52,276 nucleotides of DNA. Source: Minisyncoccota bacterium. GTDB taxonomy: Bacteria; Patescibacteriota; Minisyncoccia; Phycocordibacterales; UBA1550. The position numbers and the translations under genes are program-made. The stretch lies in NCBI GenBank assembly GCA_028712595.1, contig JAQTPS010000003.1, positions 1-52,276 of the forward strand, in the 5' to 3' direction. Positions 1,016 through 51,695 of the stretch are shown piece by piece. The notes under the pieces are model-generated. The model worked only from the letters and a program-made list of their open reading frames with translations. It searched no databases and was not told where the DNA came from. The first letter of the stretch is position 1. The number at the start of each line of letters is the position of its first letter.

Positions 1016-1065
1016 TCGCTTTAGCCAAAAGATGCTTATTCCTAGGCATTTCTTGGTTATAGCGA
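1016..1065 (+). promoter_or_regulatory. Conserved leader hairpin, copy 1
   Basis: TCGCTTTAGCCAAAAGATGCTTA-TTCC-TAGGCATTTCTTGGTTATAGCGA. It shares an invariant core with copies at 1530, 2132, 42763 and 44044. Confidence 0.6.
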
Positions 1066-1110
1066 TTCGTGTGTCGCTATATTTTTTATTTTTTTTCTTC
1101 TCACTCACAT

Positions 1111-1371
1111 ATGAAGAATCACCGACAAAGGGAAATGGAAAATAAGCTTAGGATGTACTTCCGGCGCAATAGGGGACAACTACTGACCAAAGCCGGGAAA
1201 AAAGATCTTTACGAATATATCTTCCGTCTCCTTTGTAAAGGACTGACAAAGAACTCTCTGTTCAAGGTGATCAAAGAAGAATGTTGTGAGTCTTGTCGAG
1301 AGACAAGAGCAATCTACGATGAGATAGGGATGGACGCCCATGAAACACAGAAGAACGAGTGCTTCCAGTAA
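1111..1371 (+). CDS. Small Cys-containing protein (86 aa), function unknown
   Basis: The ORF-track start 1069 was trimmed to ATG 1111 because the upstream part covers leader RNA. A pyrimidine-rich tract precedes the ATG and a terminator follows at 1385-1419. Confidence 0.5.
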   Translation: MKNHRQREMENKLRMYFRRNRGQLLTKAGKKDLYEYIFRLLCKGLTKNSLFKVIKEECCESCRETRAIYDEIGMDAHETQKNECFQ

Positions 1372-1384
1372 TCAAGAGTAACAA

Positions 1385-1419
1385 AAAGCCAATCCGATAC
1401 ACGGCGGATTGGCTTTTTT
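1385..1419 (+). terminator. Intrinsic terminator
   Basis: AGCCAATCCG / CGGATTGGCT stem followed by TTTTTT. Confidence 0.7.
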
Positions 1420-1430
1420 AGTGTTTACGC

Positions 1431-1458
1431 TTGACTTTTTCTGTGTATATGCTATAGT
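1431..1458 (+). promoter_or_regulatory. Sigma70-type promoter, TTGACT-16-TATAGT (TGC-extended)
   Basis: TTGACT 1431-1436 and TGCTATAGT 1450-1458. Confidence 0.6.
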
Positions 1459-1529
1459 GACCTCCAGACCGTTTGGAGGTTTTGTACTTCCACTAAAAAA
1501 TAGGTTCTTTACAAAAATTCACTTAATAA

Positions 1530-1592
1530 TCGCCATAGCCAAAAGATGCTTAATCAGACCCGTTCAAGTTAGGCCTTTCTTGGCTATGGCGA
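1530..1592 (+). promoter_or_regulatory. Conserved leader hairpin, copy 2
   Basis: TCGCCATAGCCAAAAGATGCTTAA...TAGGCCTTTCTTGGCTATGGCGA, with a 17-nt variable apical region. Confidence 0.65.
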
Positions 1593-1657
1593 ATTGCCAT
1601 GCATTTTCTATTTCCGCGAAATCCTTTGGATCTCGCTTCCTTTTTCCCCTCCTTCCT

Positions 1658-1981
1658 ATGGCAAAATGCCACCAAGACGCTTGTACTTCTTACTACAATG
1701 GATGCAAGAAAAAAGTAAGAAAGAATCTTATGGATTATCTTCTTAAATTGGAAGAGTCCTACAAAGCCGGCAAAATCGAACTTAAAAAATTCAAAGTTTG
1801 CGTCCAGATAAACCTCGACACTCTTGATGTAGCCTGTGGTGTCTGGATAAAATCTCCGGAAGAAAGTATGTTGCGCAATCTTTCTTTTGCCAGAATGACA
1901 GAGCTAGATTGCGAGCGCATTGACGACGAGCTCTTTCTGGACGAATTCCCGAAAGTGAATTTAACGAGCACGAACCGATAA
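1658..1981 (+). CDS. Small Cys-containing protein (107 aa), function unknown
   Basis: The ORF-track start 1409 runs through the promoter and leader hairpin, so it was trimmed to ATG 1658. TTTTTCCCCTCCTTCCT lies immediately upstream and a terminator lies at 1999-2032. Confidence 0.55.
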   Translation: MAKCHQDACTSYYNGCKKKVRKNLMDYLLKLEESYKAGKIELKKFKVCVQINLDTLDVACGVWIKSPEESMLRNLSFARMTELDCERIDDELFLDEFPKVNLTSTNR

Positions 1982-1998
1982 ATACAGCTTTATGCTGG

Positions 1999-2032
1999 GC
2001 GGTGATCCTTTGGGTCACCGCTTTATTTTTTT
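1999..2032 (+). terminator. Intrinsic terminator
   Basis: GCGGTGA / TCACCGC stem followed by TTTATTTTTTT. Confidence 0.65.
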
Positions 2033-2039
2033 CTACCCA

Positions 2040-2067
2040 TTGACTTTTTTTATATATATGCTATACT
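2040..2067 (+). promoter_or_regulatory. Sigma70-type promoter, TTGACT-16-TATACT (TGC-extended)
   Basis: TTGACT 2040-2045 and TGCTATACT 2059-2067. Confidence 0.6.
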
Positions 2068-2131
2068 AACCCCCAGGTTGTTTGGAGCTTTTATGCTTCA
2101 ACTAAAAAACAGGTTCTTTGTAAAAAAGAGC

Positions 2132-2209
2132 GTGTCGTCGTAGCAAATAGATGCTTGAACGAACAAGGTTCTGTTAAAAACCTTAGGCATTTGTTTGCTG
2201 TGACGACGC
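2132..2209 (+). promoter_or_regulatory. Conserved leader hairpin, copy 3
   Basis: GTGTCGTCGTAGCAAATAGATGCTTGA...TAGGCATTTGTTTGCTGTGACGACGC. AGCAAA/TTTGCT covaries with AGCCAA/TTGGCT of the other copies. Confidence 0.65.
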
Positions 2210-3166: not shown

Positions 3167-3193
3167 CGCCCCCGAACCGAAAGGTGAGGGGGC
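3167..3193 (+). repeat. 27-nt GC-clamped hairpin repeat, copy 2
   Basis: Identical to 2690-2716. Together they bracket the 2800-3132 cassette. Confidence 0.8.
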
Positions 3194-3210
3194 ATTGTTA
3201 TATGTTTTGC

Positions 3211-14205: not shown

Positions 14206-16836
14206 ATGCGTAATTTCCTCACCAAAAGTACCATAATTCTCCTAGGAGTTGTTTTGCTTTTGGGTGGGGCTCTGCCTGTATTCGCGCAGTTGGTCCTAAG
14301 TAGCAGTAACGACCAAGCGCATACTGGCCCTGGCACCTCAACCTTGACTACAAACCCATCGTCAACTTCGGGCGTTTCGCATGCATTTGATGACGCCGCT
14401 CAAGCAAGCGCAATAGAAAGCACTAAGGGGCCTAGGGGGTCAATTTCAAATCAGGATTTTTATGATCCAGGAACCAACGGAGAACCACCCGTAAATACAG
14501 CTAACTCAATAGAAGACCCGGATGACAATGTTGCCCTTCGTGGCTTGGGTACTATGTGTTCTGCCAACATTTTAGCTTACGGTTTGTCTGCGGGGGCACT
14601 AGCTGGTTTAAATGCTACAGACCTTGGTCTTGTTGGGGCTACCGCCGGAACGGTCGCTCCGGGGACCGAGGCGACAATCCTTGGTACTGGAGGTACTACA
14701 GGGATAGGAAACGTTGCGGCGTTGGTTGAGGGAGGAGCTGGAAGTGTTCTTGACGCAGGACTAACCGTTGCTGCTACGGCGGCTAAGTTTGCTTTTGGCA
14801 AAGCTATGTATTTCACATGTGCTCCAATTGCTATTTACTGGCTAGCATACACACCAGCATCTTTTCTTCTTAGTTTAGCGGTAAGACTTTTTGATTTCTC
14901 CATTTCCCTTAGCATGGATAATGGTTACCTCACTATGCCTTTCATTCAGGATATGTGGACAACCATAAGAGATCTCTCTAATATGTTGTTTATTTTTGTC
15001 CTAGTTTACACAGGAATTAGGACAATGCTTGGAGCAGAGGGTGACTGGAAAAGATCCGTGTTTAAAGTGATAATTATTGCCCTTTTGCTTAATTTTAGTC
15101 TCTTCTTCGCGCAAGTAGCAATTGATGCCGGGAATACTTTTGGAACATGGGTATATAGCAGTATGGGAGCAGACCCAACCGGAGCAGGACAGACAAGAAA
15201 TCTGCACGGTGCTTTTGTTAAATCATTCAAGTTGGGGAATTTCGTACCTTCCGACCAAGGACTTAATACAAACTTCTGGTCGGGGTTTGGTGTAGTCAAT
15301 TCTATATTTTTGTTCCTCCTTGTCGCAATATTAAACATCGTTGCTGCGTGGGTATTTTTGCAAATTGCATTCATTTTTATCGGACGATTGCTGGCTTTTT
15401 GGACATTAATGATTTTAGCCCCAGCTGCTTTCGTTGCAAATACTCTTCCAAAGTTTGAAGGATATTTCAGCGAGTGGTTGAATACTCTTGTGAAGCAGGC
15501 TTCCTTGGCTCCACTCTTCATGATTATGCTCTACATAATCATGAAAATTATGGGGCCAGTACAACAACTCATGAAAAGCACGCCTGCCGCGGATGACATG
15601 TCCTTAGCAGGAACAATTGTCATGCCTCTACTTGGAGCAATCACAGTTTTATTTGCACTCACAAAAGCAAAAGACTTTGCAGTAGACTGGGCTGGGGCTT
15701 TTGGAGAAATAGGGAAGAAGATCGGTGGTACAGTAATGGGTCTTGCTGGCAACACGGCACTTGGAGGAGCCGGGTTTGTTGGACGCAGGGTTGTTGGCGG
15801 AGGAGCCGATGCACTACTAAAAACAGGGGCACTTCAAAAGGTTGCATCTAGCCAAAGCAAATTGCTTCAATATAGTGGTATTACGAGTCTTGCAGGAGGA
15901 AGCGTGGCGGCAGCAGACAAGGCTAGAACAGGGAGTTGGGATGCTCGTAATTCGTCATTGATGAACAACCAGTATGTAAAAAGTGGTTTGAAAGAGGCAA
16001 GGGTTGATTTCGGAAAAGCTGGTGGAAGGGGTGGATACATGCAGGAGGAGAAGGACAATATTAAGGAGGCGAAGGACAAAGGAAAATTGCTGGGAGTTAC
16101 AGACAAAGAAAAAGGAGACAAAGAACAAGAAATCAGGGTTGACGTGGAGAAAGAATTGCAAAAAGCAATGAGTAAAAATCTTGAGAGCGAAGAGAAGCTT
16201 AGGGACGCCGACAAGAAACTACTCGAAGCCAGAGAAAAGACAATAGAGGCAGAAAAGAGTCTCTTGAAGAAAGAGAAAGAGGTGGAAGAGCTTAAAGAAA
16301 AAAATTCTAGAGAAGCGCCGGAGCTTGCCAGAAGGCTCAAAGAAGCCCTGGATAAGGGTGATCAGGAAACCATGGAAGAAATAAGTGGATTCTTAAGGGT
16401 CCGGCACGACGACATGATGAAGGGGAATCAAAATCTCGGCGAACTAAGAGGTAATTTTGAGTCTGCAAGGAAAAAAGAAGCGGTTTTTGGGGTCAATAAA
16501 GAAACTCTTTTGAAAGAATCTACCTTAACGCGCGAGAAGCTAGAAAAACTGAGGAGCCCTAAGGCAGTAGAGAATAGGATAAAAGAATGGGTTAATTCTG
16601 AAAACTTGAGACGCCAGGTGATAGCGGCAGGAGCTACAGCTTCAAGGCATTTTATTGTTTCAAGGTCTTCTCGTATAAAATTTATCAGACAGGCAATTAA
16701 AGATAAAACTTCTCAAGAGAAAGACAAGGAAACGGTAGATAAGGCAATGGAAATTTTGGCCCAGCAAGCAGAAAAAAAGAAACGAGAAGAGGAAGCTTCT
16801 CAGGGGACGGCTTCCAGCGGAGACAAGGGCAATTAA
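14206..16836 (+). CDS. Large polytopic membrane protein with a Lys/Glu-rich coiled-coil tail; VirB6/TrbL-like by topology and context
   Basis: Signal peptide, Gly/Ala/Thr-rich region, several TM helices, then a ~300-aa charged C-terminus. It is the first gene of the T4SS-like block. The pyrimidine box TTTCCACCCC lies upstream. Confidence 0.6.
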   Translation: MRNFLTKSTIILLGVVLLLGGALPVFAQLVLSSSNDQAHTGPGTSTLTTNPSSTSGVSHAFDDAAQASAIESTKGPRGSISNQDFYDPGTNGEPPVNTANSIEDPDDNVALRGLGTMCSANILAYGLSAGALAGLNATDLGLVGATAGTVAPGTEATILGTGGTTGIGNVAALVEGGAGSVLDAGLTVAATAAKFAFGKAMYFTCAPIAIYWLAYTPASFLLSLAVRLFDFSISLSMDNGYLTMPFIQDMWTTIRDLSNMLFIFVLVYTGIRTMLGAEGDWKRSVFKVIIIALLLNFSLFFAQVAIDAGNTFGTWVYSSMGADPTGAGQTRNLHGAFVKSFKLGNFVPSDQGLNTNFWSGFGVVNSIFLFLLVAILNIVAAWVFLQIAFIFIGRLLAFWTLMILAPAAFVANTLPKFEGYFSEWLNTLVKQASLAPLFMIMLYIIMKIMGPVQQLMKSTPAADDMSLAGTIVMPLLGAITVLFALTKAKDFAVDWAGAFGEIGKKIGGTVMGLAGNTALGGAGFVGRRVVGGGADALLKTGALQKVASSQSKLLQYSGITSLAGGSVAAADKARTGSWDARNSSLMNNQYVKSGLKEARVDFGKAGGRGGYMQEEKDNIKEAKDKGKLLGVTDKEKGDKEQEIRVDVEKELQKAMSKNLESEEKLRDADKKLLEAREKTIEAEKSLLKKEKEVEELKEKNSREAPELARRLKEALDKGDQETMEEISGFLRVRHDDMMKGNQNLGELRGNFESARKKEAVFGVNKETLLKESTLTREKLEKLRSPKAVENRIKEWVNSENLRRQVIAAGATASRHFIVSRSSRIKFIRQAIKDKTSQEKDKETVDKAMEILAQQAEKKKREEEASQGTASSGDKGN

Positions 16837-16847
16837 AAATATCGAAC

Positions 16848-17594
16848 ATGAATAACTTATCGGAAATTCTTGAAGAACAACTTAAAAAATTACCGTCAAG
16901 AGTAGTCGACTTCCTTGCATCTTCAAATTGGCAGGAGGTTCTCACGAATATTGGGATATCGTCCCGGCTATCCCCTCAAATAGTTGATGCTTTAGAAAAT
17001 GAGGTGGTGCTCGTCCTTGCAGGGCTTGTGCATCCAGACGCATTTCATGGTGAACTCGTAAGCCAAACCAAGATAGATGAAGTGACGTTAAGCGGGGTTG
17101 TTGCAGAAATAGAAGAAAAGATTTTTGAGCCGGTGCGCCCAGAACTTGTAAAGTTCTATGAGGATCAAACTGCTCTAGAAAATTCTAACGAGCAAGAGGG
17201 TGTAGAGGAGCCGAAGCAAGAAGAGCCAATAGAAGTAACGACTCAAAAAGAAGTTGTGCCCACCATTCCATCCCGTGTATGGGAAAAAGTTCCAGAGGTG
17301 GTTCCGCACAATTTGCCAATAGAAGAGGAGGTGCCACCAGCAGAAACTCCACAAATATTCGAGCGAGATATTATTCCGCAGACAATGAAGCCAGGAATGA
17401 ACGCCCAAACATCCAGCCCCTTTGAGGAAAAAATGAAAAAAGTATTCACGGGAAGACCAACACCAATGAATGACCTCGAGCTTGAAGCGCCACAAACTAC
17501 CTCCACAGAGCCAGCGTCTCCTCAAGTTGCAGAGTACCCAGCAGACCCAATGTCTCGGGCTCGCCACGATCCTTACCGCGAACCAATAGAATAA
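16848..17594 (+). CDS. Acidic Glu/Pro-rich protein (248 aa), function unknown
   Basis: Tightly packed within the T4SS-like block, 11 nt after the upstream stop. Confidence 0.75.
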   Translation: MNNLSEILEEQLKKLPSRVVDFLASSNWQEVLTNIGISSRLSPQIVDALENEVVLVLAGLVHPDAFHGELVSQTKIDEVTLSGVVAEIEEKIFEPVRPELVKFYEDQTALENSNEQEGVEEPKQEEPIEVTTQKEVVPTIPSRVWEKVPEVVPHNLPIEEEVPPAETPQIFERDIIPQTMKPGMNAQTSSPFEEKMKKVFTGRPTPMNDLELEAPQTTSTEPASPQVAEYPADPMSRARHDPYREPIE

Positions 17595-17599
17595 AAAAT

Positions 17600-18043
17600 A
17601 TGCAATTCCACGTACCACAATTCATAGACATAGAGGACAAACTTTTTGGCCCTTTCACATTCAAGCAGGGGATTTATGTCGCTGGTGGATTGGGGGCTTC
17701 GTTTGTAATTTATCGCCTTGTTCCATATCTCATTTTTTCCGCACCACTTATAGCCGGTGTCGGCATCCTTACTTGGGCTCTTGCTTTTTATCCAAAAGAG
17801 AAACTTGGTAAGCCATTCATTGAAATTCTGGAAGCCGGATTAAAATATACGCTGAAAGAAAAGCTATATACATGGAAAAAAACAACGAAAGATCCTAAAC
17901 TAGGTAAGGAGAAAGAGTTTGTTTCGGCTCAAGTTCCAGTGATGCCCTCCGTCCCAAGTGGCGCGCTCGCTTCTTATTCTCTTAAGCTTGAGCGTGGGAG
18001 GCCTCAGGTCGGTAATACGAGCGACAATAAAACTACTCTATAA
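17600..18043 (+). CDS. PrgI/VirB3-like small membrane protein
   Basis: The N-terminus VPQFIDIEDKLFGPFTFKQGIYVAGG is followed by two TM helices, the pattern of Gram-positive PrgI-family T4SS proteins. Confidence 0.65.
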   Translation: MQFHVPQFIDIEDKLFGPFTFKQGIYVAGGLGASFVIYRLVPYLIFSAPLIAGVGILTWALAFYPKEKLGKPFIEILEAGLKYTLKEKLYTWKKTTKDPKLGKEKEFVSAQVPVMPSVPSGALASYSLKLERGRPQVGNTSDNKTTL

Positions 18044-18045
18044 TT

Positions 18046-18705
18046 ATGGCTATCAAATCAAAAGCGGCACAAGATTTTGTTCCGATAAAAGAAATCCGAG
18101 ACGGAGTCCTCATTTTGAAGGACGGCACTATGCGTATGGTGCTTATGGTTTCGTCCATAAACCTTGCGCTCAAATCCGGAGACGAGCAACAAGCCGTGCT
18201 TATGCAATTCCAAAATTTTTTGAACTCGCTGGAATTTTCTACTCAAATATTTATTCAGTCCAGACGACTTGATATTCGTCCATATCTCTCGCGGCTAGAA
18301 GAGCGTCTAAAAGAAGAAATGAACGAGCTTTTGAAAATTCAGATTTTTGAATACATTGGTTTCATAAAAGCTGTCACTACTTCGACAAATATTATGAATA
18401 AGCTTTTCTTGGTTGTTGTACCTTATTCACCGCCAAGACCAGTTACTGCAGATGCTCCAAAAACTTCTGGAATTGGGGGCTTTTTCGGTAAAAAAACCGA
18501 AAACGCAGACCCTGTTTTGACACAAAGCGCCATTGATGCTTTCGAAGAGGCGCGTTCGCAATTAGAGCAACGTTCCGGAATTGTGCGACAAGGCCTGTCG
18601 CGCACTGGTGTTCATATTCTCACACTCGGGAACGAAGAGCTTACGGAACTTTTCTATCATCTCTTTAATCCAGGAGAGGAACAGAAGCAAGCTGTGGTAA
18701 AATAG
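18046..18705 (+). CDS. Protein resembling the N-terminal domain of VirB4/TrsE-type ATPases (219 aa, no NTPase motifs)
   Basis: AQDFVPIKEIRDGVLILKDGTMRMVLMVSSINLALKS...QIFIQSRRLDIRPYL resembles the start of Gram-positive VirB4 homologues. Confidence 0.5.
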   Translation: MAIKSKAAQDFVPIKEIRDGVLILKDGTMRMVLMVSSINLALKSGDEQQAVLMQFQNFLNSLEFSTQIFIQSRRLDIRPYLSRLEERLKEEMNELLKIQIFEYIGFIKAVTTSTNIMNKLFLVVVPYSPPRPVTADAPKTSGIGGFFGKKTENADPVLTQSAIDAFEEARSQLEQRSGIVRQGLSRTGVHILTLGNEELTELFYHLFNPGEEQKQAVVK

Positions 18706-18715
18706 AAGCAGTATC

Positions 18716-18776
18716 TACCGCGGGCAGAGCCCGCCACAAGGAGAAACCTCCTTGTGCACGACAGAGTCGTGCGGTA
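18716..18776 (+). ncRNA. Cloverleaf-like structured element in the intergenic region upstream of virB4
   Basis: The closing stem TACCG/CGGTA encloses three hairpins: CGGGC-AGA-GCCCG, CACAAGGAG-AAAC-CTCCTTGTG and CACGAC-AGA-GTCGTG. Confidence 0.4.
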
Positions 18777-18861
18777 TCATACTCTTATATTAGCCTCCTC
18801 GGCTCGAAAATAAAAATGAGTACATTCTTATTTCCCTCGCTCTACGTCGCAAATAAATAAT

Positions 18862-20685
18862 ATGTTTGACTTTTTTAGCAAAAAAACTGACGCATCTATG
18901 GGGAAAAATACGGTCCCTGTGCTTCCTCAAGAACTTTACAGCGACAAAGGTCTAAACCTTGCTGATGTGATTGCTCCCTCCGCTGTCAAAGTAAATGCAA
19001 AGTTCCTAAATATCGGCGAAAAGGTAGTGCGTTCATTTTTTGTCACTTCGTATCCAAGCACACTTTCCGACAACTGGCTGTCACCACTCATTAACCTCGA
19101 CAAAGTTTTTGATATTGCGATATATGTTCACCCCGTCGACACGGCAGCTATAATGAAAAAGTTTGAGCGTAAAGTTGCGGAGGTACAAAGCCAGATTAAC
19201 ACCCGCGAACAAAAAGGATTCGTCCGCGACCCAATGCTCGAAACCGCATACCGCGACCTCGAGGAGCTTCGTGACCGACTCCAGCAAGTTCAAGAAAAAA
19301 TGTTTGATGTTGGACTATATATTTCACTCTATGCAGATTCCGAAGTAGAGCTTTCAAAAGCGGAAGCAGAAATCAAATCAATGCTTGAGTCCCGACTCAT
19401 TTATGTTCGACCCGCCCTCTTTCAACAAGAAGAAGCGTTCCAAAGTATTATTCCAGTCAACCAAGACCAGCTTCTCGTCACAAAGAAAATTAATTCCGAG
19501 CCGTTGTCGAGCTTTTTCCCATTCGTATCGTTTGACCTCACTTCAGATAGGGGAATTCTCTACGGCATCAACCGCCACAACTCATCTCTCATTTTATTTG
19601 ATAGATTTTCTCTTGAAAACTACAACTCTGTCACGTTTGCAAAGTCGGGCTCTGGAAAATCATACGCGACAAAGCTGGAAATTCTCCGCAGTTTGATGTT
19701 CGATGTTGACGTAATCGTGATTGACCCTGAAAGGGAATACGAATCAATGGCATCAGCAGTAGGTGGACGCTATTTCAATATTTCTCTCAACTCCGAGCAC
19801 CACATAAACCCATTTGACCTCCCAATTCCACGAGAAGATGAGTCGTCTGCGGATGTTCTTCGGGCAAACATTATCGCCCTTGTTGGACTTTTCCGAATAA
19901 TGCTAGGAGGTCTCTCGCCAGAAGAAGATGCTCTCGTAGACCGCGCCATTGCCGAAACATATGCGCTCAAAGACATCACGCCGGATTCTGATTTTTCTGC
20001 AATCGAAGCTCCTCTTCTTTCAGATTTCGAAATGGTGCTAGCAGGAATGAAGGGAACTGAAAATATTTTAGTAAAACTTACAAAATACACTCGTGGTTCT
20101 TGGTCAGGATTCATCAACCAGCCGTCCAACGTCGATATCAACCGCAAGTTTATTGTGTTTTCCGTACGCGATATGGAAGACGATTTGAAGCCTGTTGCAA
20201 TGTACCTAGTAACTCACTTTATCTGGAATGCAATACGACGCACACTCCGAAAACGCCTTCTCGTAGTCGATGAGGCATGGTGGATGATGAAGTCCGAAGA
20301 TACGGCAGCTTTCCTTTACTCGCTTGCAAAACGAGGACGCAAGTATTTCCTCGGCATCGCAACAATCACACAAGACGTTGACGACTTTTTGAAATCTCCT
20401 TACGGACGACCTATTATCACCAACTCCTCCATTCAAATTCTTCTCAAGCAATCCCCAACAGCAATCGCAGCGCTTCAAGATGCATTCACGCTGACCGACG
20501 AAGAAAAATATTTACTTCTTGAGTCCGGAGTAGGGGAGGGTATCTTTTTTGCCGGAGTAAAACACGCTGCTATTCGCGTCATTGCTTCATATACTGAAGA
20601 TCAAATTATTACTTCAGACCCATCTCAACTTTTGGCCATCAAAAAAGCAAAACGAGAACTAGTGGATGCAGAAGGAAGGGCGTAA
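18862..20685 (+). CDS. virB4: VirB4/TraC/TrsE-family type IV secretion ATPase
   Basis: Walker A KSGSGKSY, Walker B RLLVVDEAWWMM, and 607 aa with a VirB4-like N-domain. Confidence 0.88.
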   Translation: MFDFFSKKTDASMGKNTVPVLPQELYSDKGLNLADVIAPSAVKVNAKFLNIGEKVVRSFFVTSYPSTLSDNWLSPLINLDKVFDIAIYVHPVDTAAIMKKFERKVAEVQSQINTREQKGFVRDPMLETAYRDLEELRDRLQQVQEKMFDVGLYISLYADSEVELSKAEAEIKSMLESRLIYVRPALFQQEEAFQSIIPVNQDQLLVTKKINSEPLSSFFPFVSFDLTSDRGILYGINRHNSSLILFDRFSLENYNSVTFAKSGSGKSYATKLEILRSLMFDVDVIVIDPEREYESMASAVGGRYFNISLNSEHHINPFDLPIPREDESSADVLRANIIALVGLFRIMLGGLSPEEDALVDRAIAETYALKDITPDSDFSAIEAPLLSDFEMVLAGMKGTENILVKLTKYTRGSWSGFINQPSNVDINRKFIVFSVRDMEDDLKPVAMYLVTHFIWNAIRRTLRKRLLVVDEAWWMMKSEDTAAFLYSLAKRGRKYFLGIATITQDVDDFLKSPYGRPIITNSSIQILLKQSPTAIAALQDAFTLTDEEKYLLLESGVGEGIFFAGVKHAAIRVIASYTEDQIITSDPSQLLAIKKAKRELVDAEGRA

Positions 20686-20743
20686 TATTAGCGTTCTTCG
20701 GTTTTGTCTTTCACATTCTATAATAATGCGATACAATAATCCT

Positions 20744-21760
20744 ATGAAGAAGCTTTGCACTTTTTTGTTCCTCGCTTTTGCAACTATTCCATTTTTTGTC
20801 TTTGCACAGGGGCTTCCCATAGATGCTTCGTCTTCTGGCTCTCTTGTTCTACAGTCAGTTCCTGCGGCTCCACTTCCTAAAGAGATGGTCACTGTTGTTT
20901 TGTCAGGCCCTGGAATCAACCTGCGAGATGCAACCATAACTTGGTCTATTAACGACAAGGTTGTAGGGATGGGTGTTGGCAAGACAACTTTTTCTTTTAA
21001 AAACGGGGGGTCAGAAGAGACGACAGACATTGTAGCTTCAGTTCTTTTAAATACGGGGGAAGTTTTGAGCAAAAAAATTTCGTTTACACCAGCAGGGTTC
21101 AGTCTACTCTGGGAAGCAAGTACTTATACGCCCCCTTTCTACAAAGGAAAGGCGACAATGACGCCAGAGGCAAATATGCGCGTGTTGGTAGTGCCAGACA
21201 ATTCAAGTACTGCTGACAGAATAGATCCGAGCACGCTTATGTACACATGGCGAAAAGATGGAACTACTCTCCCCGACAATTCAGATTACGGTAAAAACTC
21301 TTTTTCATTTACAGCCCCAAAGCTCGGATATCCTGCCGATATTCAAGTTCAATTGGTTTCACCAGACAGTACTATTGATCAAGGATATGGAATTAAACTT
21401 TCGCCCGGAGTTCCTTTTGTGCTTTTGTATGAAGATGTTCCATTGTTGGGGGTTTGGTACAACAATGCCTTTGGAAATACCGTTACGCTTGACAGGAAAG
21501 AGTTCTCGATTAGCGCCGAACCGTATTTTTTCCCAAGCGAGACGGGGCTAACACCTAACGTTACCTATAGTTGGGCTCTTGATGGAAAACTGCTTCAAGA
21601 AGCTAGTCGTTTTATAACATTTCGCAACGAAACTGAAGAAAAAGTAGATTCTAAATTAAACCTATCGGTCCAAAGCAAAAACAAAGGCTCACAAACAGCT
21701 ACTAGATCTCTTGTGATCCGCTCCGCCGACATCCAATCGTCCGGTTCTTTTATGTATTAA
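20744..21760 (+). CDS. Secreted protein (338 aa), function unknown
   Basis: Trimmed to ATG 20744. Signal peptide MKKLCTFLFLAFATIPFFVFAQG. TACAAT lies 6 nt upstream of the ATG. Confidence 0.75.
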   Translation: MKKLCTFLFLAFATIPFFVFAQGLPIDASSSGSLVLQSVPAAPLPKEMVTVVLSGPGINLRDATITWSINDKVVGMGVGKTTFSFKNGGSEETTDIVASVLLNTGEVLSKKISFTPAGFSLLWEASTYTPPFYKGKATMTPEANMRVLVVPDNSSTADRIDPSTLMYTWRKDGTTLPDNSDYGKNSFSFTAPKLGYPADIQVQLVSPDSTIDQGYGIKLSPGVPFVLLYEDVPLLGVWYNNAFGNTVTLDRKEFSISAEPYFFPSETGLTPNVTYSWALDGKLLQEASRFITFRNETEEKVDSKLNLSVQSKNKGSQTATRSLVIRSADIQSSGSFMY

Positions 21761-21775
21761 CATATTTTTTGTATT

Positions 21776-22897
21776 ATGAAATATATTTCCAAAATTTTAG
21801 CAACCTTAGTTCTTGTTTTTTTAATAACACTCATATCACATATTGCTTTTGCTGACCAAACGCCATTATCATACACTCCGCTCACCACGCTTCCGGGAAT
21901 TACCAAAGAGGGGATAGCTTCTAGTGGTGTTCATAACTACCTCTCGGGGGTGTTTGCCTTGGTTATTGCTCTTGCGGGCGCCCTTGCTGTTTTAATTCTT
22001 GTTGTTGGGGGCGTCCAATATGTGGCCTCTGGAATTACGCCAGACCAAAAAGGCCGAGCAAAGGAGCGTATTAAAAATGCCCTTATTGGACTTGCCCTCA
22101 TCTTGGGCTCTTGGTTAATATTAAATTCAATAAACCCCGCTCTTAAGAGCCCTGCCCTTCAAAGCCTTCCTCCGGTTGGTGTAGAAGCGAGCCTGCAGGC
22201 AATTAAAGACCAGCAGGCCATGAACGAGAAAATTCTCAAGGATTTTGCGGATTTTGCTAAGGAGCAGGCGGATTTTGAAGCATCCGCAGGGCAGCAACAG
22301 AACTTCGTTCCAAGTTATACCGAGAGAACAGGACCTGGAGTAGCTGGGTATGTTTCTCCAGTTCCATCTTCCGGCAATTGCCTTACCCAACCTTTTGGGT
22401 ATACGTCTTACGCCCTCGAATCTGGTATTTATCCTAAAAATTTCCACGATGGAATTGATTTTGGTGTAGGGTCAGGAACGGAAATAAAATCAATAGCAAA
22501 TGGAGAAGTTGTGTATACAGGAAATTGTGGAGATAAAACATTTGGAAAATGGGTTTATATTAAACACGACGACCCCCTCGGAACGTCGGCTTTGTATGCC
22601 CACCTCAAAGACAACAGTATCCCTGTGGGAACCAAGGTGGCTGCTGGGCAGAAAATTGCCCTAAGTGGCAACAGTGGTCCACCAGGAATGGGTTCTCATC
22701 TCCACGCGACTCTATTCAACTCTAGTGCTGTTGGGTTTGGTAGTCCTTCGTGTGGACCAAACTTTCCTCGCGCGTCATACCCAAAAACAAACCCAATAAG
22801 CGCGGAGTATACTGGATATTTAGACATGGAAAAATACCTTGGTGGCCCCCTTACTATGTGTATCAACTCACGCACCGGTAGTCCGTTTGCTAGGTAA
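21776..22897 (+). CDS. Fusion of a TrbC/VirB2-like T4SS pilin module with an M23 peptidase domain
   Basis: Signal peptide, then two hydrophobic helices separated by GGVQYVASGITPDQKGRAKERIKNA (VirB2-type layout). C-terminal M23 motifs FHDGIDF and GSHLHATLF. Confidence 0.7.
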   Translation: MKYISKILATLVLVFLITLISHIAFADQTPLSYTPLTTLPGITKEGIASSGVHNYLSGVFALVIALAGALAVLILVVGGVQYVASGITPDQKGRAKERIKNALIGLALILGSWLILNSINPALKSPALQSLPPVGVEASLQAIKDQQAMNEKILKDFADFAKEQADFEASAGQQQNFVPSYTERTGPGVAGYVSPVPSSGNCLTQPFGYTSYALESGIYPKNFHDGIDFGVGSGTEIKSIANGEVVYTGNCGDKTFGKWVYIKHDDPLGTSALYAHLKDNSIPVGTKVAAGQKIALSGNSGPPGMGSHLHATLFNSSAVGFGSPSCGPNFPRASYPKTNPISAEYTGYLDMEKYLGGPLTMCINSRTGSPFAR

Positions 22898-22995
22898 AAT
22901 CGTTGTAGGCATAAAAATTCTGCTACCTGCGCGTTGGTGCTAAGTTCTTTTAGGAAATCTTTGTGCTTAGTGGTGGCTTCCTGTATAATTACACT

Positions 22996-31785: not shown

Positions 31786-33162
31786 ATGAAAAAAGGAGAC
31801 GAGATTGTGGACATATTAACTCGCGGCGTGGGCGGTTTTGTTGACCCAACCGGAGCTTTTAAGGAAAAGCTTACAAAAAAAGCGAATGGCGAAGATGTGG
31901 GTGAAATTATTATTAAATTTGGCGTTGACCCGACCCGCCCCGACATCCATTTAGGGCATGCGGTTGTGTTTCGCAAGCTTCGCCAGTTTCAAAACCTTGG
32001 TTGCAAGATAATTTTCCTTATCGGTGATTTCACTGTGGCAATAGGGGACCCGACGGGGAAAAGCAAGGTTCGCCCAGAAATAAATCAAAAGGAAGTTGAA
32101 AACAACGTGGCTACTTACTTGGCGCAAGTCGGCAAGATTTTAAAAATTGACGACCCAAAACTCTTTTCGTGGATACGAAACTCTGATTGGTTTACCAGCC
32201 CAATGGACATTTTGGTTCCCGAAAATTTTAAACTAGAAATTAACGGACAAAAAGTTCCATCAAACTCTCTTTTGGCAAAAACAGCTTTTTTTGAAAACAC
32301 AAGAATGCAAAAAACACACCTTGGGAAAGAGGGCGCGATAGGCGTAAATCTTGTAAACATGCTTTGGAACTTGAAACACATAACCGAACCCCAGCTTATC
32401 GAACGAGATATGTTCCAAGACCGCCTCAAGTCCGGCAGTCCTTTGTTTATGCACGAAATGATGTACCCGGTTTTGCAAGGGCTGGACTCAGTGTGCATAT
32501 ACAGGATTTATGGGGGGTGCGATATGGAAATCGGCGGAACTGACCAAACCTTCAATATGCTTATGGGGCGCAACATTATGAAAGCAAATAATCAGCCCGA
32601 GCAAGCGGTTATGAGCATGGAAATCCTAGTTGGAACCGACGGGAAAGAAAAAATGAGCAAGAGCTTGGATAACTACATAGGTATTACCGATGAACCAAAC
32701 AATATGTTTGGCAAAGTAATGTCTATTAATGACAGCTCAATCCCTAATTTCTATGAACTCTGCACCGTAGCTACTCCAGAAAGAATAAAAGAAATAAAAG
32801 CAGAGCTCAAAAAAGGAAAAACAAACCCTCGCGATTTGAAAATGGCACTTGCCGAAGAGATTGTCGCGACATATCACGGCAAAGACAAAGCGATTTCTGC
32901 GCGCGAAGCGTTCATAAATACTTTTCAGAAAAAAGAAATTCCCGACGATGTGATGGAATTCAAGGGAGGGGATGCGCTACTCGGCGACATACTTCACGCA
33001 GAAGAAATTGTTGAATCAAAAACAGAGTGGCGACGACTCATTGACAGAGGAGCAGTGAAACGCTTGTCTCCAAAAGGCGAGCAAAAAATAATTGACCCAA
33101 AGGTTCGCGCAACCCCCGGAGTCTACAAGATCGGCAAGAAAAGATTTATAAAAATAGTGTAA
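31786..33162 (+). CDS. tyrS: Tyrosyl-tRNA synthetase
   Basis: HIGH motif as HLGH, GDFTVAIGDPTGK, an exact KMSKS, and a C-terminal S4-like domain. TAATAT -10 ends 8 nt before the ATG. Confidence 0.88.
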   Translation: MKKGDEIVDILTRGVGGFVDPTGAFKEKLTKKANGEDVGEIIIKFGVDPTRPDIHLGHAVVFRKLRQFQNLGCKIIFLIGDFTVAIGDPTGKSKVRPEINQKEVENNVATYLAQVGKILKIDDPKLFSWIRNSDWFTSPMDILVPENFKLEINGQKVPSNSLLAKTAFFENTRMQKTHLGKEGAIGVNLVNMLWNLKHITEPQLIERDMFQDRLKSGSPLFMHEMMYPVLQGLDSVCIYRIYGGCDMEIGGTDQTFNMLMGRNIMKANNQPEQAVMSMEILVGTDGKEKMSKSLDNYIGITDEPNNMFGKVMSINDSSIPNFYELCTVATPERIKEIKAELKKGKTNPRDLKMALAEEIVATYHGKDKAISAREAFINTFQKKEIPDDVMEFKGGDALLGDILHAEEIVESKTEWRRLIDRGAVKRLSPKGEQKIIDPKVRATPGVYKIGKKRFIKIV

Positions 33163-34683: not shown

Positions 34684-34729
34684 GGTATAGGTTGATTCAA
34701 GTTTGGCCAAACTTGAATCAACCTATACC
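34684..34729. repeat. 46-bp perfect palindrome in a divergent intergenic region
   Basis: GGTATAGGTTGATTCAAGTTTGG | CCAAACTTGAATCAACCTATACC with no spacer. ATACCGAGGT (34725-34734) also pairs with ACCTCGGTAT (34787-34796). Confidence 0.9.
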
Positions 34730-34883: not shown

Positions 34884-36266
34884 ATGAAAAATATCCTTCA
34901 GACCACCAAAATCATCACCCTCGCCGTCATTCTTTCTCTCGGTCTCTCCTATGTCTACGCCTGGACAGCCCCAACCCAAACTGCTCCAGCGGGAAACGTA
35001 TCTGCGCCGCTAAATACAAGTGGTACCGACCAGACAAAGCTCGGAAGCTTGTCGTTTGCAAGCTTCCTCGACTCAAATAATACAGATTACTTTCTAAACC
35101 CAAACGGGGATTCGGTCTTAAGCAATGTTTTAGTAACTGGTGGTGATGTTTGCACTGGCTGGGATCAAGTAGCCCACGCATGGACTGCATCGAAAAAATG
35201 TTTGAGTACCGCAGGTGGTAGCAGTGGAGGTAGTGGCGTTAATGAATATGGAGATGGTTCGAGTTTGGATGGTGATATTACTTCGAATACTACACTTACA
35301 GCCAACAAGCAATACAACAACCTTAGAATACGGTCGGGTGTTTCGTTAAATACTGGAGGATATATTGTAAAAGTAAAAGGCACCCTTACTTTTGACAGCG
35401 CAACATCAAAAATTATTCTTAATGGAGGGGGCGGAGGCAATGGCGCCAATGCTTCGGGGTCTGGTGGTAATACATGTGGAGCTCCTTGTGGACAATTTCC
35501 TGCCGCCGGCGGTCTTAGTGGAACCCCTGCACCAAGCGCAGTTCTTCCGTTGGCTATAGCAGGCGCCACTGGCGGACTGGGTGGTATGGGAGGAGAACCC
35601 TCAAGCGAGAGTGGGTCGGCGGGAACTTCAAACGCTGGCTCATCTGAGGCTAACGGTATCGGAAGTGGCGGTGTTGTCGGGGTTGCTGGCGCTGGTTCAT
35701 CTTCTTTTGGCGCAGCGACTACCGCTACGGCACCAATCCAAAATATATTAGCAATGCTATTCCAGTTGCCCGTTATTGACAATACTAACCCACCAACCCT
35801 TGCCGGGGGAGGTTCTTCGGGTGGCTCTGGAGGAGGAGGCGGTGGAAATGGAGGTTACTATTGGGGATATTCGGGTGGTCGCGGTGGTGGTGCTGGCGGA
35901 AACGGCGCTAACGGAGGAAATGTTTGGCTTGCTCTGAATGCAGTTTCCGGTGACGGCGTAATTGAAGCCAAGGGTGGAAACGGTGGAAATGGGGGAAACG
36001 GTTCAGACGGAACAACTAATACTTATAGTGGTGGCTCTGGTGGTGGAGGGGCTGGTGGCTCCGGGGGCACGGGTGGAGTTATTGTAATTGTATACAATGA
36101 CCTTTCGGCGTGGACCGGCAGTCGTACAAACGTAAGCGGTGGAACTGGTGGCACAGGAGGACGTCGTGGGTGCGACCCGCCAACTTCTCCCTCAACTTGT
36201 CCAAGACCTTTCGCTAGTTCGGGCAACACCGGCAACACCGGGAAAATTTATTTTATAAAGAGGTAA
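34884..36266 (+). CDS. Secreted or anchored Gly-rich repeat protein (460 aa), function unknown
   Basis: Hydrophobic N-terminus, then WTAPTQTAPAGNVSAPLNTSGTDQTKLGSL, then long GGxGGxG tracts. Confidence 0.75.
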   Translation: MKNILQTTKIITLAVILSLGLSYVYAWTAPTQTAPAGNVSAPLNTSGTDQTKLGSLSFASFLDSNNTDYFLNPNGDSVLSNVLVTGGDVCTGWDQVAHAWTASKKCLSTAGGSSGGSGVNEYGDGSSLDGDITSNTTLTANKQYNNLRIRSGVSLNTGGYIVKVKGTLTFDSATSKIILNGGGGGNGANASGSGGNTCGAPCGQFPAAGGLSGTPAPSAVLPLAIAGATGGLGGMGGEPSSESGSAGTSNAGSSEANGIGSGGVVGVAGAGSSSFGAATTATAPIQNILAMLFQLPVIDNTNPPTLAGGGSSGGSGGGGGGNGGYYWGYSGGRGGGAGGNGANGGNVWLALNAVSGDGVIEAKGGNGGNGGNGSDGTTNTYSGGSGGGGAGGSGGTGGVIVIVYNDLSAWTGSRTNVSGGTGGTGGRRGCDPPTSPSTCPRPFASSGNTGNTGKIYFIKR

Positions 36267-40335: not shown

Positions 40336-40393
40336 GAAAGCCGGCTAACACAAGTTCTTTACAACTCTTTTTCACTTCTTTCCCCAATACTCT

Positions 40394-41980: not shown

Positions 41981-42028
41981 TGTAGGTAAGCGAACTGTTC
42001 TTTACTTCTTTCTTTCCCCCCATTTTCT

Positions 42029-42697: not shown

Positions 42698-42725
42698 TTG
42701 ACATTTTTGTTGATTATGATACAGT
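42698..42725 (+). promoter_or_regulatory. Sigma70-type promoter, TTGACA-16-TACAGT (TG-extended)
   Basis: TTGACA 42698-42703 and TGATACAGT 42717-42725. Confidence 0.5.
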
Positions 42726-42762
42726 TCTAGTCAGATAAAGACCTTTGCAAATTCGTTCGAAG

Positions 42763-42815
42763 TTCGCCAAAGCCAAGAGAAGCTTGATAGATAAGCTTTT
42801 GCTGGCTTTGGCGAA
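42763..42815 (+). promoter_or_regulatory. Conserved leader hairpin, copy 4 (variant)
   Basis: TTCGCCAAAGCCAAGAGAAGCTTGA-TAGA-TAAGCTTTTGCTGGCTTTGGCGAA. Same architecture as copies 1-3, with compensatory ATGC>AAGC / GCAT>GCTT changes. Confidence 0.55.
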
Positions 42816-42869
42816 TAGGCACTTATGTCTCCACCGAAGCGCATATTTACTTCCTTCCCCAATACAAAT

Positions 42870-43349
42870 ATGCAAACACAAATTCTTGCCTGGCTCTTCA
42901 AAGACCGTGGCATAGTTGTTAAATGGTTTTCTGCCCTGACTACCACACTTTCAAAAATGTTTGACCTCGTGGCCACTACATTTTCAAAAGTGTCTGAGTT
43001 GGCTTGGTGGGCACTGGCCTTGGCGCTTGTCGTTCTGACCGGCGTGGCAACATTTTCTCTCTACGTTGGCGCAGCCGTCGTCGGCATATTGCTAATCGTG
43101 CTCGTAGCTACTGCCAAATCGGGACTCGGAATGATTCAGACTCTCGGAGGGGCAATAAGCAACGCGGGACACAACAGCGATTTCGCCAGCGCGGATGATA
43201 TTTCTTCGGACGACGAAGAAGTTCCGCTCGAAGACAATGCCGACGCGAACGATGATGAAATAGACGACGAACCAAATGATGGTATGCGACGTGCCGCCGA
43301 AAGGGGAGCACTCGCTGCCGGATTTAGAAGTCGTCGGATTTCTAGATAA
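42870..43349 (+). CDS. Membrane protein with an acidic C-terminal tail (159 aa), function unknown
   Basis: Trimmed to ATG 42870, preceded by ACTTCCTTCCCCAATACAAAT. Two TM helices and a DDISSDDEEVPLEDNADANDDEIDDEPND tail. Confidence 0.6.
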   Translation: MQTQILAWLFKDRGIVVKWFSALTTTLSKMFDLVATTFSKVSELAWWALALALVVLTGVATFSLYVGAAVVGILLIVLVATAKSGLGMIQTLGGAISNAGHNSDFASADDISSDDEEVPLEDNADANDDEIDDEPNDGMRRAAERGALAAGFRSRRISR

Positions 43350-43975: not shown

Positions 43976-44004
43976 TTGACTTTTTCTTGGGAGTATGCTA
44001 CACT
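43976..44004 (+). promoter_or_regulatory. Sigma70-type promoter, TTGACT-17-TACACT (TGC-extended)
   Basis: TTGACT 43976-43981 and TGCTACACT 43996-44004. Confidence 0.55.
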
Positions 44005-44043
44005 AGCACTTAGATAAGTTAAATATGCTCTTTGAAGTTTTGT

Positions 44044-44113
44044 GGGCTCGTCATAGCCAAAAGATGCTTAATTAGAGCTTGAAATATAGGCATTTGTTGG
44101 CTATGACGACGCC
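44044..44113 (+). promoter_or_regulatory. Conserved leader hairpin, copy 5
   Basis: GGGCTCGTCATAGCCAAAAGATGCTTAA...TAGGCATTTGTTGGCTATGACGACGCC. Confidence 0.65.
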
Positions 44114-44194
44114 ACCTAAACCCTCCGGGTTTTCGTCTCCATAGTATTGGAAGAAGATATTCTTTCCTTTCCCTCAAATTTTCCCCCCAATCCT

Positions 44195-44923
44195 ATGGCA
44201 AACGATAACCCAGTGGTCCTTCATTTGAATCGCAAGTTGGTAAAATTCTTTGTATGGATTGTCGCGATTGCGATAATCCTTTGGCTCCTTTGGCCCTTCT
44301 TTAAGGTCATCTGTGTGAAGTACAAAGGAGAGCTAACTATCGGAGTCAATACTCCGTGCGTTAATTGCGAAGTGAAGAAAGAAGAGCCGAAGCCACAAAA
44401 AAAGACCTATCCTGCTAAGCAGGTAGCATCTCAACCAGCACCAGCTCCTGTGCCAGAGGAGCCAACTTGGTTCGGTAGCCCCATTCCTCTTCCTGTGGTT
44501 GTGAAGAAGCTGGAACCGGTACGAACATATCGACGATATGTTCCGCCCTATAGGCCTTCTTATCCATACAGACCGCCCTACCGTGAGCCCGAAATTGTGC
44601 AACGGTTTTACGATACGACCATTCATAATGGACCGTACCAACCATCGGCGCAACCGGCATCAACGTCGACTACTGTGAATGTGCAGCAGACAACGGTTAT
44701 AAGCAACACCATCTCTGCACAACCAACACAGCCGACGCCGGCACAACAGCCTCCAGTAGGGATTACAAACAACGGGTCTACAGGGAATCCAAACACCGCA
44801 GTTGGAGCTAGTGGAATTACGAACGGAGCAACTACGGGAACGTCACAGCCCCCAGCGGGAATTACGGGTCAAGGAAATGGTTCAACCGCGAACCAAAATG
44901 GTAGTTGGACATTCCACGAGTAA
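44195..44923 (+). CDS. N-terminally anchored Pro/Thr/Gln-rich protein (242 aa), function unknown
   Basis: The track TTG start 44147 was trimmed to ATG 44195, preceded by TTTTCCCCCCAATCCT. TM anchor FFVWIVAIAIILWLLWPFF. YRPSYPYRPPYREP repeats. Confidence 0.65.
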   Translation: MANDNPVVLHLNRKLVKFFVWIVAIAIILWLLWPFFKVICVKYKGELTIGVNTPCVNCEVKKEEPKPQKKTYPAKQVASQPAPAPVPEEPTWFGSPIPLPVVVKKLEPVRTYRRYVPPYRPSYPYRPPYREPEIVQRFYDTTIHNGPYQPSAQPASTSTTVNVQQTTVISNTISAQPTQPTPAQQPPVGITNNGSTGNPNTAVGASGITNGATTGTSQPPAGITGQGNGSTANQNGSWTFHE

Positions 44924-51609: not shown

Positions 51610-51633
51610 AAAAAGTTCAGGTGTTTAGTAGTT

Positions 51634-51666
51634 TAAAAAATGCTTAAAATATTTAAGCATTTTTTA
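51634..51666. terminator. Bidirectional A/T-flanked terminator
   Basis: AAAAAATGCTTAAA / TTTAAGCATTTTTT. Confidence 0.6.
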
Positions 51667-51695
51667 AACCATGAAGAGATTATGAAGATTTTCAC

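Follow-up and report, generated by a model that had tools for sequence, protein, structure and literature searches.

The RNase III signals of phage T7, such as R1.1, are hairpins of about two helical turns in which an internal loop splits an upper from a lower stem, and they precede several unrelated genes. They lie between the genes of polycistronic transcripts, where the cut leaves 3' hairpins that stabilise the upstream mRNA. In the cspA leader of Staphylococcus aureus, a few unpaired nucleotides (nt) are followed by a 32-bp helix that is cut by RNase III; the shortened leader folds into a smaller 5' hairpin, and the mRNA half-life rises from less than 2.5 to more than 16 min (PMC3386247). 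In the rRNA (rrn) operons, boxA lies 18–19 nt upstream of boxC, which falls within the 5' strand of a helix cut by RNase III (PMC10250234). The gamma-proteobacterial boxA consensus is GYTCTTTAANA (PMC5725501), and its nucleotides G2, C5 and U6 are essential and are read by NusB (PMC3177189). Here we describe P1, a long hairpin found in five mRNA leaders of a 52,276-nt stretch of a Minisyncoccota bacterium (positions 1–52,276 of contig JAQTPS010000003.1, assembly GCA_028712595.1), the whole of which is referred to below as the window.

The five hairpins are true copies of an undescribed structured RNA element that is present in mRNA leaders of many bacteria of the Candidate Phyla Radiation (CPR). 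The anatomy of these leaders includes a single-stranded boxA-like motif, a spacer of about 10–15 nt, a helix of about 24 bp with a central internal loop, and a downstream segment that can re-pair with one of the helix strands. From this anatomy we tentatively favour a processing site of the RNase III type that would refold into a protective 5' hairpin.

Five copies of P1 in the window

The first-pass annotation of the window, made from the letters alone, had proposed five hairpins, all of which were borne out on the forward strand, at 1015–1066, 1530–1592, 2132–2209, 42762–42816 and 44048–44109 (copies 1 to 5). The helix has 22–26 bp in all five, and each copy sits between a promoter and an unrelated small open reading frame (ORF), 45–95 nt from the start codon. 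Folding energies lie between -26 and -41 kcal/mol and z-scores between -5.7 and -8.0, and for each copy 0 of 200 shuffled sequences folded equally well. The 5' arm motif occurs ten times in the window at three or fewer mismatches, against 0.8 occurrences expected by chance, and the 3' arm motif eight times, against 0.7. A covariance model, run over the window with filters off, recovered exactly the five copies, with 52–65 bits on the forward and 30–47 bits on the reverse strand; its best other match is an AT-rich palindrome unrelated to P1 (28 bits). The model detected no further diverged copies in the window (filters off) or in 301 kb of related loci.

The structural details of the first-pass annotation stood with one amendment. 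The basal stems differ in sequence between copies and keep their complementarity, and in copy 3 the change of AGCCAA to AGCAAA is compensated by that of TTGGCT to TTTGCT, a C-G to A-U replacement. Within the five copies alone, both sides have changed in 7 of 26 pairs, and 89% of the alignment cells are paired, compared with 32–50% in controls with the partner strand slid. Fixed non-Watson-Crick positions had been proposed, namely one A·C and two G·U. The two G·U positions held, with G·U at 22/63 in all five copies and U·G at 27/58 in four of them. The central mismatch is constant in place and varies in kind: A·C in copies 1 and 2 (at 1029/1052 in copy 1), A·G in copy 5, U·G in copy 3 and a 2x2 internal loop (AG/GC) in copy 4. 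The apical region varies freely, as had been suggested, with a loop of 4–26 nt conserved neither in sequence nor in length. The statement that P1 is not a terminator also holds: no U-run begins within 2 nt of it, and a terminator scan never lists it.

The cassettes that carry P1 are monocistronic, each with a TTGAC-type promoter, a leader, a small ORF and its own terminator, and arrays of cassettes occupy both ends of the window. Promoter-like sites precede all five copies, including the three for which promoters had been reported, all on the forward strand like the features that follow them. In cassette 1, the site at 926–953 (TTGACT-16-TAAATT) precedes copy 1, which has a 4-nt loop and scores 61.3 bits, and an 86-aa ORF (1111–1371). 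Cassette 2 comprises a site at 1431–1458 (TTGACT-16-TATAGT), copy 2 with a 17-nt apical region (62.9 bits) and a 107-aa ORF (1658–1981). In cassette 3, the site at 2040–2067 (TTGACT-16-TATACT) is followed by copy 3, with 26 contiguous pairs and an apical extension that has a small stem of its own (52.3 bits), and by a 134-aa ORF (2257–2661). Cassette 4 contains a site at 42698–42725 (TTGACA-16-TACAGT), the most diverged copy (62.3 bits) and a 159-aa ORF (42870–43349) with a hydrophobic segment that suggests a membrane protein. Cassette 5 has a site at 43976–44004 (TTGACT-17-TACACT), copy 5 with a 16-nt apical region (64.9 bits) and a 242-aa ORF (44195–44923) with an N-terminal hydrophobic segment. 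The resemblance noted upstream of copies 2 and 3 covers the promoter as well as the leader, 87 nt in all, with 82% identity. The five downstream proteins are mutually unrelated, as claimed for the first three; none has a Pfam match, and no homologue of the cassette 5 protein was found in a large protein database. Two neighbouring unrelated cassette genes are followed by a G+C-rich terminator hairpin CGCCCCCGAACCGAAAGGTGAGGGGGCG (2690–2724 and 3167–3201) with 94% identity.

The P1 family in CPR genomes

A pattern of two arms with 22–23 fixed bases and a gap of 4–34 nt, for which about 0.1–0.4 chance matches were expected, found 10 loci in the GTDB representative genomes and 44 in metagenomes. 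Eight of the GTDB loci belong to metagenome-assembled genomes (MAGs) of Saccharibacteria, Taylorbacteria, Nomurabacteria and Falkowbacteria, one to an unclassified bacterial MAG and one to a Hungatella MAG. The Hungatella locus (L007) was rejected as a chance match, having neither the basal stem nor the leader context, and is a terminator-like hairpin after a gene. There were 0 matches in the IMG/VR viral contigs, and a phage origin was rejected on this result. The earlier failure to recognise a named RNA family agrees with our searches: the window has no Rfam 15 match at the gathering threshold, 24 of the loci gave only tRNAs and one small-subunit rRNA, with nothing credible at P1 in E-value mode, and in the literature the P1 motif sequence was found in no paper.

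The compensatory changes claimed for the window are confirmed in an alignment of 49 distinct copies. Here 91% of the cells are paired, compared with 29–50% when the partner is slid, ten pairs have changed on both sides, and these values are reached by 0 of 500 shuffles. The best covarying pairs are 5/74 (GC 28, CG 10, AU 8, GU 3), 7/72 (UA 37, CG 10) and 21/58 (UA 19, GC 13, UG 6, AU 5, GU 3, CG 1). The helix of this alignment has 24 positions and is divided into a lower stem of 13 bp and an upper one of 9 bp by an internal loop at a fixed place, which is AA/CC in 36–42 of the 49 copies. The conservation of the stem is partly an artefact, because the search pattern fixed 23 of its bases; the strongest covarying pairs fall at positions that the pattern left free.

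The alignment also reveals the strand on which the structure is maintained. G·U variants occur often, and at two positions the G·U pair hardly varies, so that the opposite strand would carry C·A mismatches at the same places. The model scores 15–25 bits higher on the forward strand than on the reverse. Since these features coincide with a constant placement between promoter and start codon, the structure belongs to the sense RNA, and the data support P1 as a sense-strand RNA structure kept by selection.

Two other readings of the conserved sequence were rejected. A leader peptide starting from an AUG in the 5' arm (AGATGCTT) does not fit because the AUG is not conserved: its position is that of the best covarying pair and holds U, G, A or C. 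A derivation from the 16S rRNA leader-trailer helix was dismissed as well, since the 16S trailer of locus L054, the 16S flank of one organism, has no P1-like arm. The 16S rRNA gene of this locus (1–1560) is itself interrupted by an ORF, the N-terminal sequence of which is LAGLIDADG-like by appearance rather than by domain search; it contains a conserved AAGTCGTAACAAGG block followed by ..GGATTATTTC, without the CCTCC anti-Shine-Dalgarno sequence.

Outside the window, the canonical leader has AGTTCTTTGATA at the predicted transcription start, followed by the ACTTGCGA motif, P1, two or three small hairpins, a Shine-Dalgarno sequence and ATG. The downstream ORFs encode 180–250 aa with hypervariable C-termini. 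The final ~120 nt of the ORF recur 350–400 nt downstream in six loci; in five of the six, nearly all differences between the duplicates fall on an A of the downstream copy (for example 16/16, 18/18 and 15/15 mismatches), and in L028 the downstream copy has A at 12 of 18 mismatches. Such A-biased duplicates are the signature of the template and variable repeats (TR and VR) of diversity-generating retroelements (DGRs). Components of DGRs were identified in L002, L003, L008, L028, L031 and L041; an RVT_1 reverse transcriptase (RT) gene follows in L031 and L003, and L031 also has a bAvd gene. Among the 36 downstream proteins outside the window, 31 form one BLASTP cluster that includes all five targets taken as verified DGR targets. 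The DGR surveys that we searched do not mention leader structures, and P1 is the first conserved non-coding feature tied to CPR DGR target genes that our searches brought up. In L031 (1–2600), L003 and L041 the DGR layout is target gene, intrinsic terminator, TR, avd on the opposite strand and RT. In the same three loci, one N-terminal module (MSTEFASAGLTAGQLNAIVKKLGGHD) is joined to differing variable-region families, and in L041 an IS66 transposase gene lies beside the DGR.

The exceptions to this cluster include L019, L026 and L044, all from one 583-kb metagenome contig that has the promoter type and the C/U-rich leaders in common with the window. L019 contains (at 1014–1710) the orthologue of the cassette 5 gene. 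The two leaders are 83% identical and their P1 stems are identical, compared with 32% identity of the proteins; the leader is thus more constrained than its gene. In the window, the downstream genes are not homologues of DGR targets, self-BLAST found no TR/VR pair, and no reverse transcriptase was found among the ORFs scanned against Pfam. This argues that P1 is a portable leader module rather than a DGR homing element. The module is gene-independent, being associated with DGR variable-protein genes in most CPR lineages and with fast-evolving orphan genes in the lineage of the window.

Alternative pairing, the boxA-like motif and possible mechanisms

The P1 leaders contain a second conserved pairing. 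In folds that omit the 5' arm, the lower 3' strand of P1, starting 1–6 nt past the internal loop, pairs in almost every leader with the next 15–40 nt to form an alternative hairpin (Alt). The partner segment co-varies with the lineage-specific lower stem: native combinations have -8.2 kcal/mol compared with -5.5 kcal/mol for swapped ones (Wilcoxon p = 1.6e-7, a value that is optimistic because the sequences are related). In copy 1, the 3' basal strand TATAGCGA pairs with downstream TCGCTATA (1058–1081; native -11.2, swapped -5.8 kcal/mol, with 1 of 45 swaps equally good), and a U-run follows at 1082–1098; this is the only Alt hairpin that qualifies as an intrinsic terminator. In copy 2, Alt (1583–1602) joins the 3' strand with GCCATGC, and none of 32 swaps is equally good; for Alt of copy 4 (42803–42843) the count is 0 of 45. 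Alt of copy 5 (44100–44145) pairs CTATGACGA with TCGTCTCCATAG. This pairing and its co-variation indicate that the leader encodes two mutually exclusive states, 1:2 (P1) and 2:3 (Alt). Alt has a stability of about -8 to -15 kcal/mol, compared with -26 to -41 kcal/mol for P1; because P1 precedes Alt in transcription and greatly exceeds it in stability, Alt would need the 5' strand to be removed or held before it could form.

Upstream of the helix, 37 of 46 leaders match GYTCTTTRANA in at least 10 of its 11 positions, 7–17 nt 5' of the base of P1. This motif equals the gamma-proteobacterial boxA except that G is allowed at position 8. The motif retains G2, C5 and U6, is predicted to be unpaired, and lies a short distance 5' of the stem-loop; in canonical leaders it is at the 5' end of the transcript. 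In the window, three copies match at 10/11 positions, one at 9/11 and one at 8/11, at 8–15 nt from P1 in copies 1 to 5, and it is the distance to P1, not to the promoter, that is kept. Copy 1 has a weak match, GTTCATTCACA (991–1001, 9/11, 14 nt 5' of P1), which is not significant alone against leader shuffles. The 10/11 matches are GTTCTTTACAA in copy 2 (1504–1514, 15 nt), GTTCTTTGTAA in copy 3 (2113–2123, 8 nt) and GCTCTTTGAAG in copy 5 (44027–44037, 10 nt), of which those of copies 2 and 5 are predicted to be unpaired. In the leaders of L002, L004 and L051, a 26-nt insertion (CCCAGTAGGC..) between the motif and P1 extends the spacing from ~12 to 37 nt. A small hairpin (CCTCCAG..TTGGAGG) is found at the predicted start of the leaders of copy 2 (1459–1481, flagged as terminator-like by the scan), copy 3 (2068–2090) and L044; it lies 5' of the boxA-like motif, the same order as that of boxB and boxA in rrn leaders. 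Masking of the Shine-Dalgarno region by the 5' single-stranded ACUUGCGA motif was considered and rejected, as the native duplex (-8.2 kcal/mol) is little different from swapped ones (-7.8 kcal/mol, p = 0.77). Our literature search found no paper that links boxA with DGRs.

We tentatively propose, by analogy with processed leaders, that the P1 leader is an RNase III-type processing helix. The nascent leader would fold into P1, and an endonuclease specific for double strands, of the RNase III type, would cut the helix at or near its central loop. The cut would detach the 5' part together with the boxA-like motif, and the freed lower 3' strand could then pair with the adjacent downstream segment, placing Alt at the new 5' end of the mRNA. 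There Alt would shield the mRNA from 5'-end-dependent decay and so set the expression level of the downstream gene. An RNase III-type site is the simplest reading of a helix of at least 20 bp, or about two turns, with a soft centre (AA/CC, A-U, G·U, A-U), an irrelevant loop and an Alt hairpin that begins at the internal loop. The first-pass annotation's reading of a stem recognised by a protein or an RNase is partly supported, with an RNase as the likelier but putative partner. No rnc gene was found among the window ORFs scanned against Pfam.

Several observations, in addition to the optimistic significance of the swap test, weigh against this proposal. Alt of copy 3 is weak, with equally good swaps in 7 of 42, and the 30-nt window of the swap test was too short for Alt of copy 5. 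The boxA-like matches of the window are individually non-significant against shuffles of the T/C-rich leaders, and similar GTTCTTTAC motifs also occur in cassettes that have no hairpin. RNase III sites rarely need a stem sequence as conserved as that of P1, which would point to a more specific partner.

An extension of the processing model is possible, and we put it forward with greater reserve: the boxA-like motif, P1 and Alt may form a CPR-wide module that borrows the rRNA pathway, with Nus factor loading, RNase III cutting of a miniature leader-trailer helix and a stabilising refold, recruited to fast-evolving accessory genes. If so, the expression of accessory genes, whether DGR-diversified or orphan, would be tied to the machinery of ribosome synthesis.

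Antitermination without cleavage, as in nut sites and rrn leaders, is a rather unlikely alternative. The boxA-like motif would load NusB-S10, together with NusA and NusG, and P1 would act as a double-stranded element like boxB or boxC, bound next to boxA or by an N-like factor, so that polymerase resists Rho, and perhaps intrinsic terminators, over long untranslated stretches. A nut site has the same layout of motif, spacer and stem-loop, and the conserved G2, C5 and U6, the predicted single-strandedness, the position at the transcript 5' end in canonical leaders and, in the window, the spacing tied to P1 rather than to the promoter all fit such a role. The double-stranded RNA site of NusB-S10 is contiguous with its boxA site (PMC3177189), and DGR loci do have an untranslated TR and terminator-like hairpins between the target and RT genes. 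The loop of P1, however, is unconserved, unlike the boxB loop that is read by N, and antitermination has no obvious use in the monocistronic window cassettes with their own terminators. It also leaves the conserved alternative pairing unexplained and depends on boxA-like matches that are statistically weak in the window.

A sequence-specific RNA-binding protein, for example a translational repressor, a stabiliser or a localisation factor, could instead read the stem with its G·U pairs and A·C loop, and this we consider more doubtful still. An operator of this kind would account for a stem sequence that is very highly conserved across CPR phyla, for the fixed non-Watson-Crick positions and the freely varying apical region, and for the independence of the element from the downstream gene. 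Part of the sequence conservation comes from the search pattern, however, and the distance of 45–95 nt from the window start codons is too long for simple occlusion. No candidate protein is linked to P1, and the loci examined, whose neighbourhoods were not systematically compared, showed no obvious conserved gene beside it.

We see little more than a slight chance that the two exclusive pairings form an attenuator or riboregulator, in which a factor masking the 5' strand would shift the leader from P1 to Alt, and Alt would terminate transcription or alter access to the start region. Such a switch requires that the 5' strand, the 3' strand and the downstream segment co-vary with one another, as they do, and Alt of copy 1, with its long U-run, is scored as terminator-like. 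Most Alt hairpins, those of canonical leaders included, have no U-run, though, and Alt cannot compete with the first-transcribed and much more stable P1 unless P1 is removed. No region resembling a conserved ligand pocket was found, and native 5' regions do not pair with the start region any more strongly than swapped ones do.

It is improbable that P1 is a DGR-specific element, such as a binding site of RT or Avd or a mark of targets for mutagenic homing. The 31 of 36 ORFs that cluster with verified targets, the TR/VR pairs with adenine-specific mismatches and the adjacent RT and Avd genes all speak for a DGR role, yet the window has five copies with no TR/VR pair, no RT among the Pfam-scanned ORFs and no DGR-target homologues downstream. 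Moreover, P1 lies more than 600 nt 5' of VR, in contrast to known homing signals at the VR 3' end (PMC6602519). Finally, P1 has the look of a DNA-level element (a palindromic operator, an attC-like recombination site or a miniature mobile repeat) in being an imperfect inverted repeat with a variable centre and several copies, but this explanation is hardly credible, because the arm spacing of 4–26 nt is unsuited to a dimeric operator, the other strand would have C·A mismatches in place of the G·U pairs, target-site duplications are absent, the pattern is missing from viral contigs and, in answer to the earlier concern about a mobile repeat, every copy is sense-oriented between promoter and start codon with flanks unshared except in copies 2 and 3, where promoter and leader are duplicated.

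Surroundings of the cassettes and comparison with known systems

The window, part of a bacterial chromosome, lies around dnaA and dnaN and also contains polA, tyrS, ksgA, uvrD, ruvABC and the genes for PBP1 and for a type IV pilus ATPase, together with a type IV secretion-like cluster. The secretion-like cluster (14206–24249) encodes an 876-aa TrbL/VirB6-like protein, a TraG/VirB4-like ATPase and a fusion of a type IV secretion system pilin domain with an M23 peptidase. The PBP1 ORF (29127–31976, reverse strand, TTG start) overlaps the tyrS ORF (31786–33162, forward strand) by ~190 nt, and the true start of PBP1 is probably further downstream. Two further palindromes are unrelated to P1: a perfect one of 46 nt (34684–34729), upstream of the ORF at 34884, and an AT-rich one (19% G+C) near the window end (51627–51674). 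Shine-Dalgarno sequences are absent from all genes of the window (40360–40393, 41997–42028 and 44160–44194; compare 26150–26179 and 27740–27769), which suggests that initiation in this organism is Shine-Dalgarno-independent. Leaders of the window cassette genes are C/U-rich (..TTTCCCC..CT-ATG) and those of housekeeping genes are A-rich.

Very few regulatory RNAs are known from CPR organisms. P1 adds a new structured-RNA family with ~55 examples in several CPR phyla, ready for an Rfam-style model, and provides a simple sequence tag for DGR targets and other fast-evolving CPR accessory genes. Its two-state design would offer a concrete mechanism of post-transcriptional control for reduced genomes, and the leader could serve as a portable expression leader in Saccharibacteria genetics.

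P1 is kin in general kind to RNase III-processed leaders and to boxA leaders, and is a member of no described family. With the T7 signals it shares a two-turn, split-stem hairpin that recurs before unrelated genes of one genome. P1, unlike R1.1, belongs to monocistronic leaders, in which an alternative 5' hairpin is also conserved.

The likeness to cspA lies in the few unpaired nucleotides, the long and nearly perfect helix that precedes the ribosome-binding region and leaves the start codon free, and the smaller refold at the 5' terminus. Cleavage is established for cspA, whereas for P1 it is proposed here. The cspA helix has 32 bp, serves one gene and has no boxA, while P1 has ~24 bp with a fixed internal loop and precedes many unrelated genes in several phyla.

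Like the rrn leaders and the lambda nut sites (PMC10250234, PMC3177189), the P1 leaders have a boxA-like strand with G2, C5 and U6 at a short and fairly constant distance from the conserved 5' strand of a long helix. P1 does not enclose an rRNA but closes upon itself, on mRNAs, with a loop of 4–26 nt, and in contrast to lambda nut it has no conserved N-type loop. The cis elements described for DGRs, namely the initiation of mutagenic homing (IMH) sequence, the GC-rich hairpin 3' of VR and the TR-spacer RNA, and the Rfam motifs RT-1 to RT-19 share their loci with P1 in most CPR genomes. P1 matches no RT-x model, and a sole weak RT-9 match (30.7 bits, against a gathering threshold of 46.1) lies elsewhere in L041. 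P1 differs from all of these in lying 5' of the target gene and in occurring also where no DGR is nearby. The family is unusual for its breadth across the CPR, for its association with DGR targets and for the refold that it encodes.

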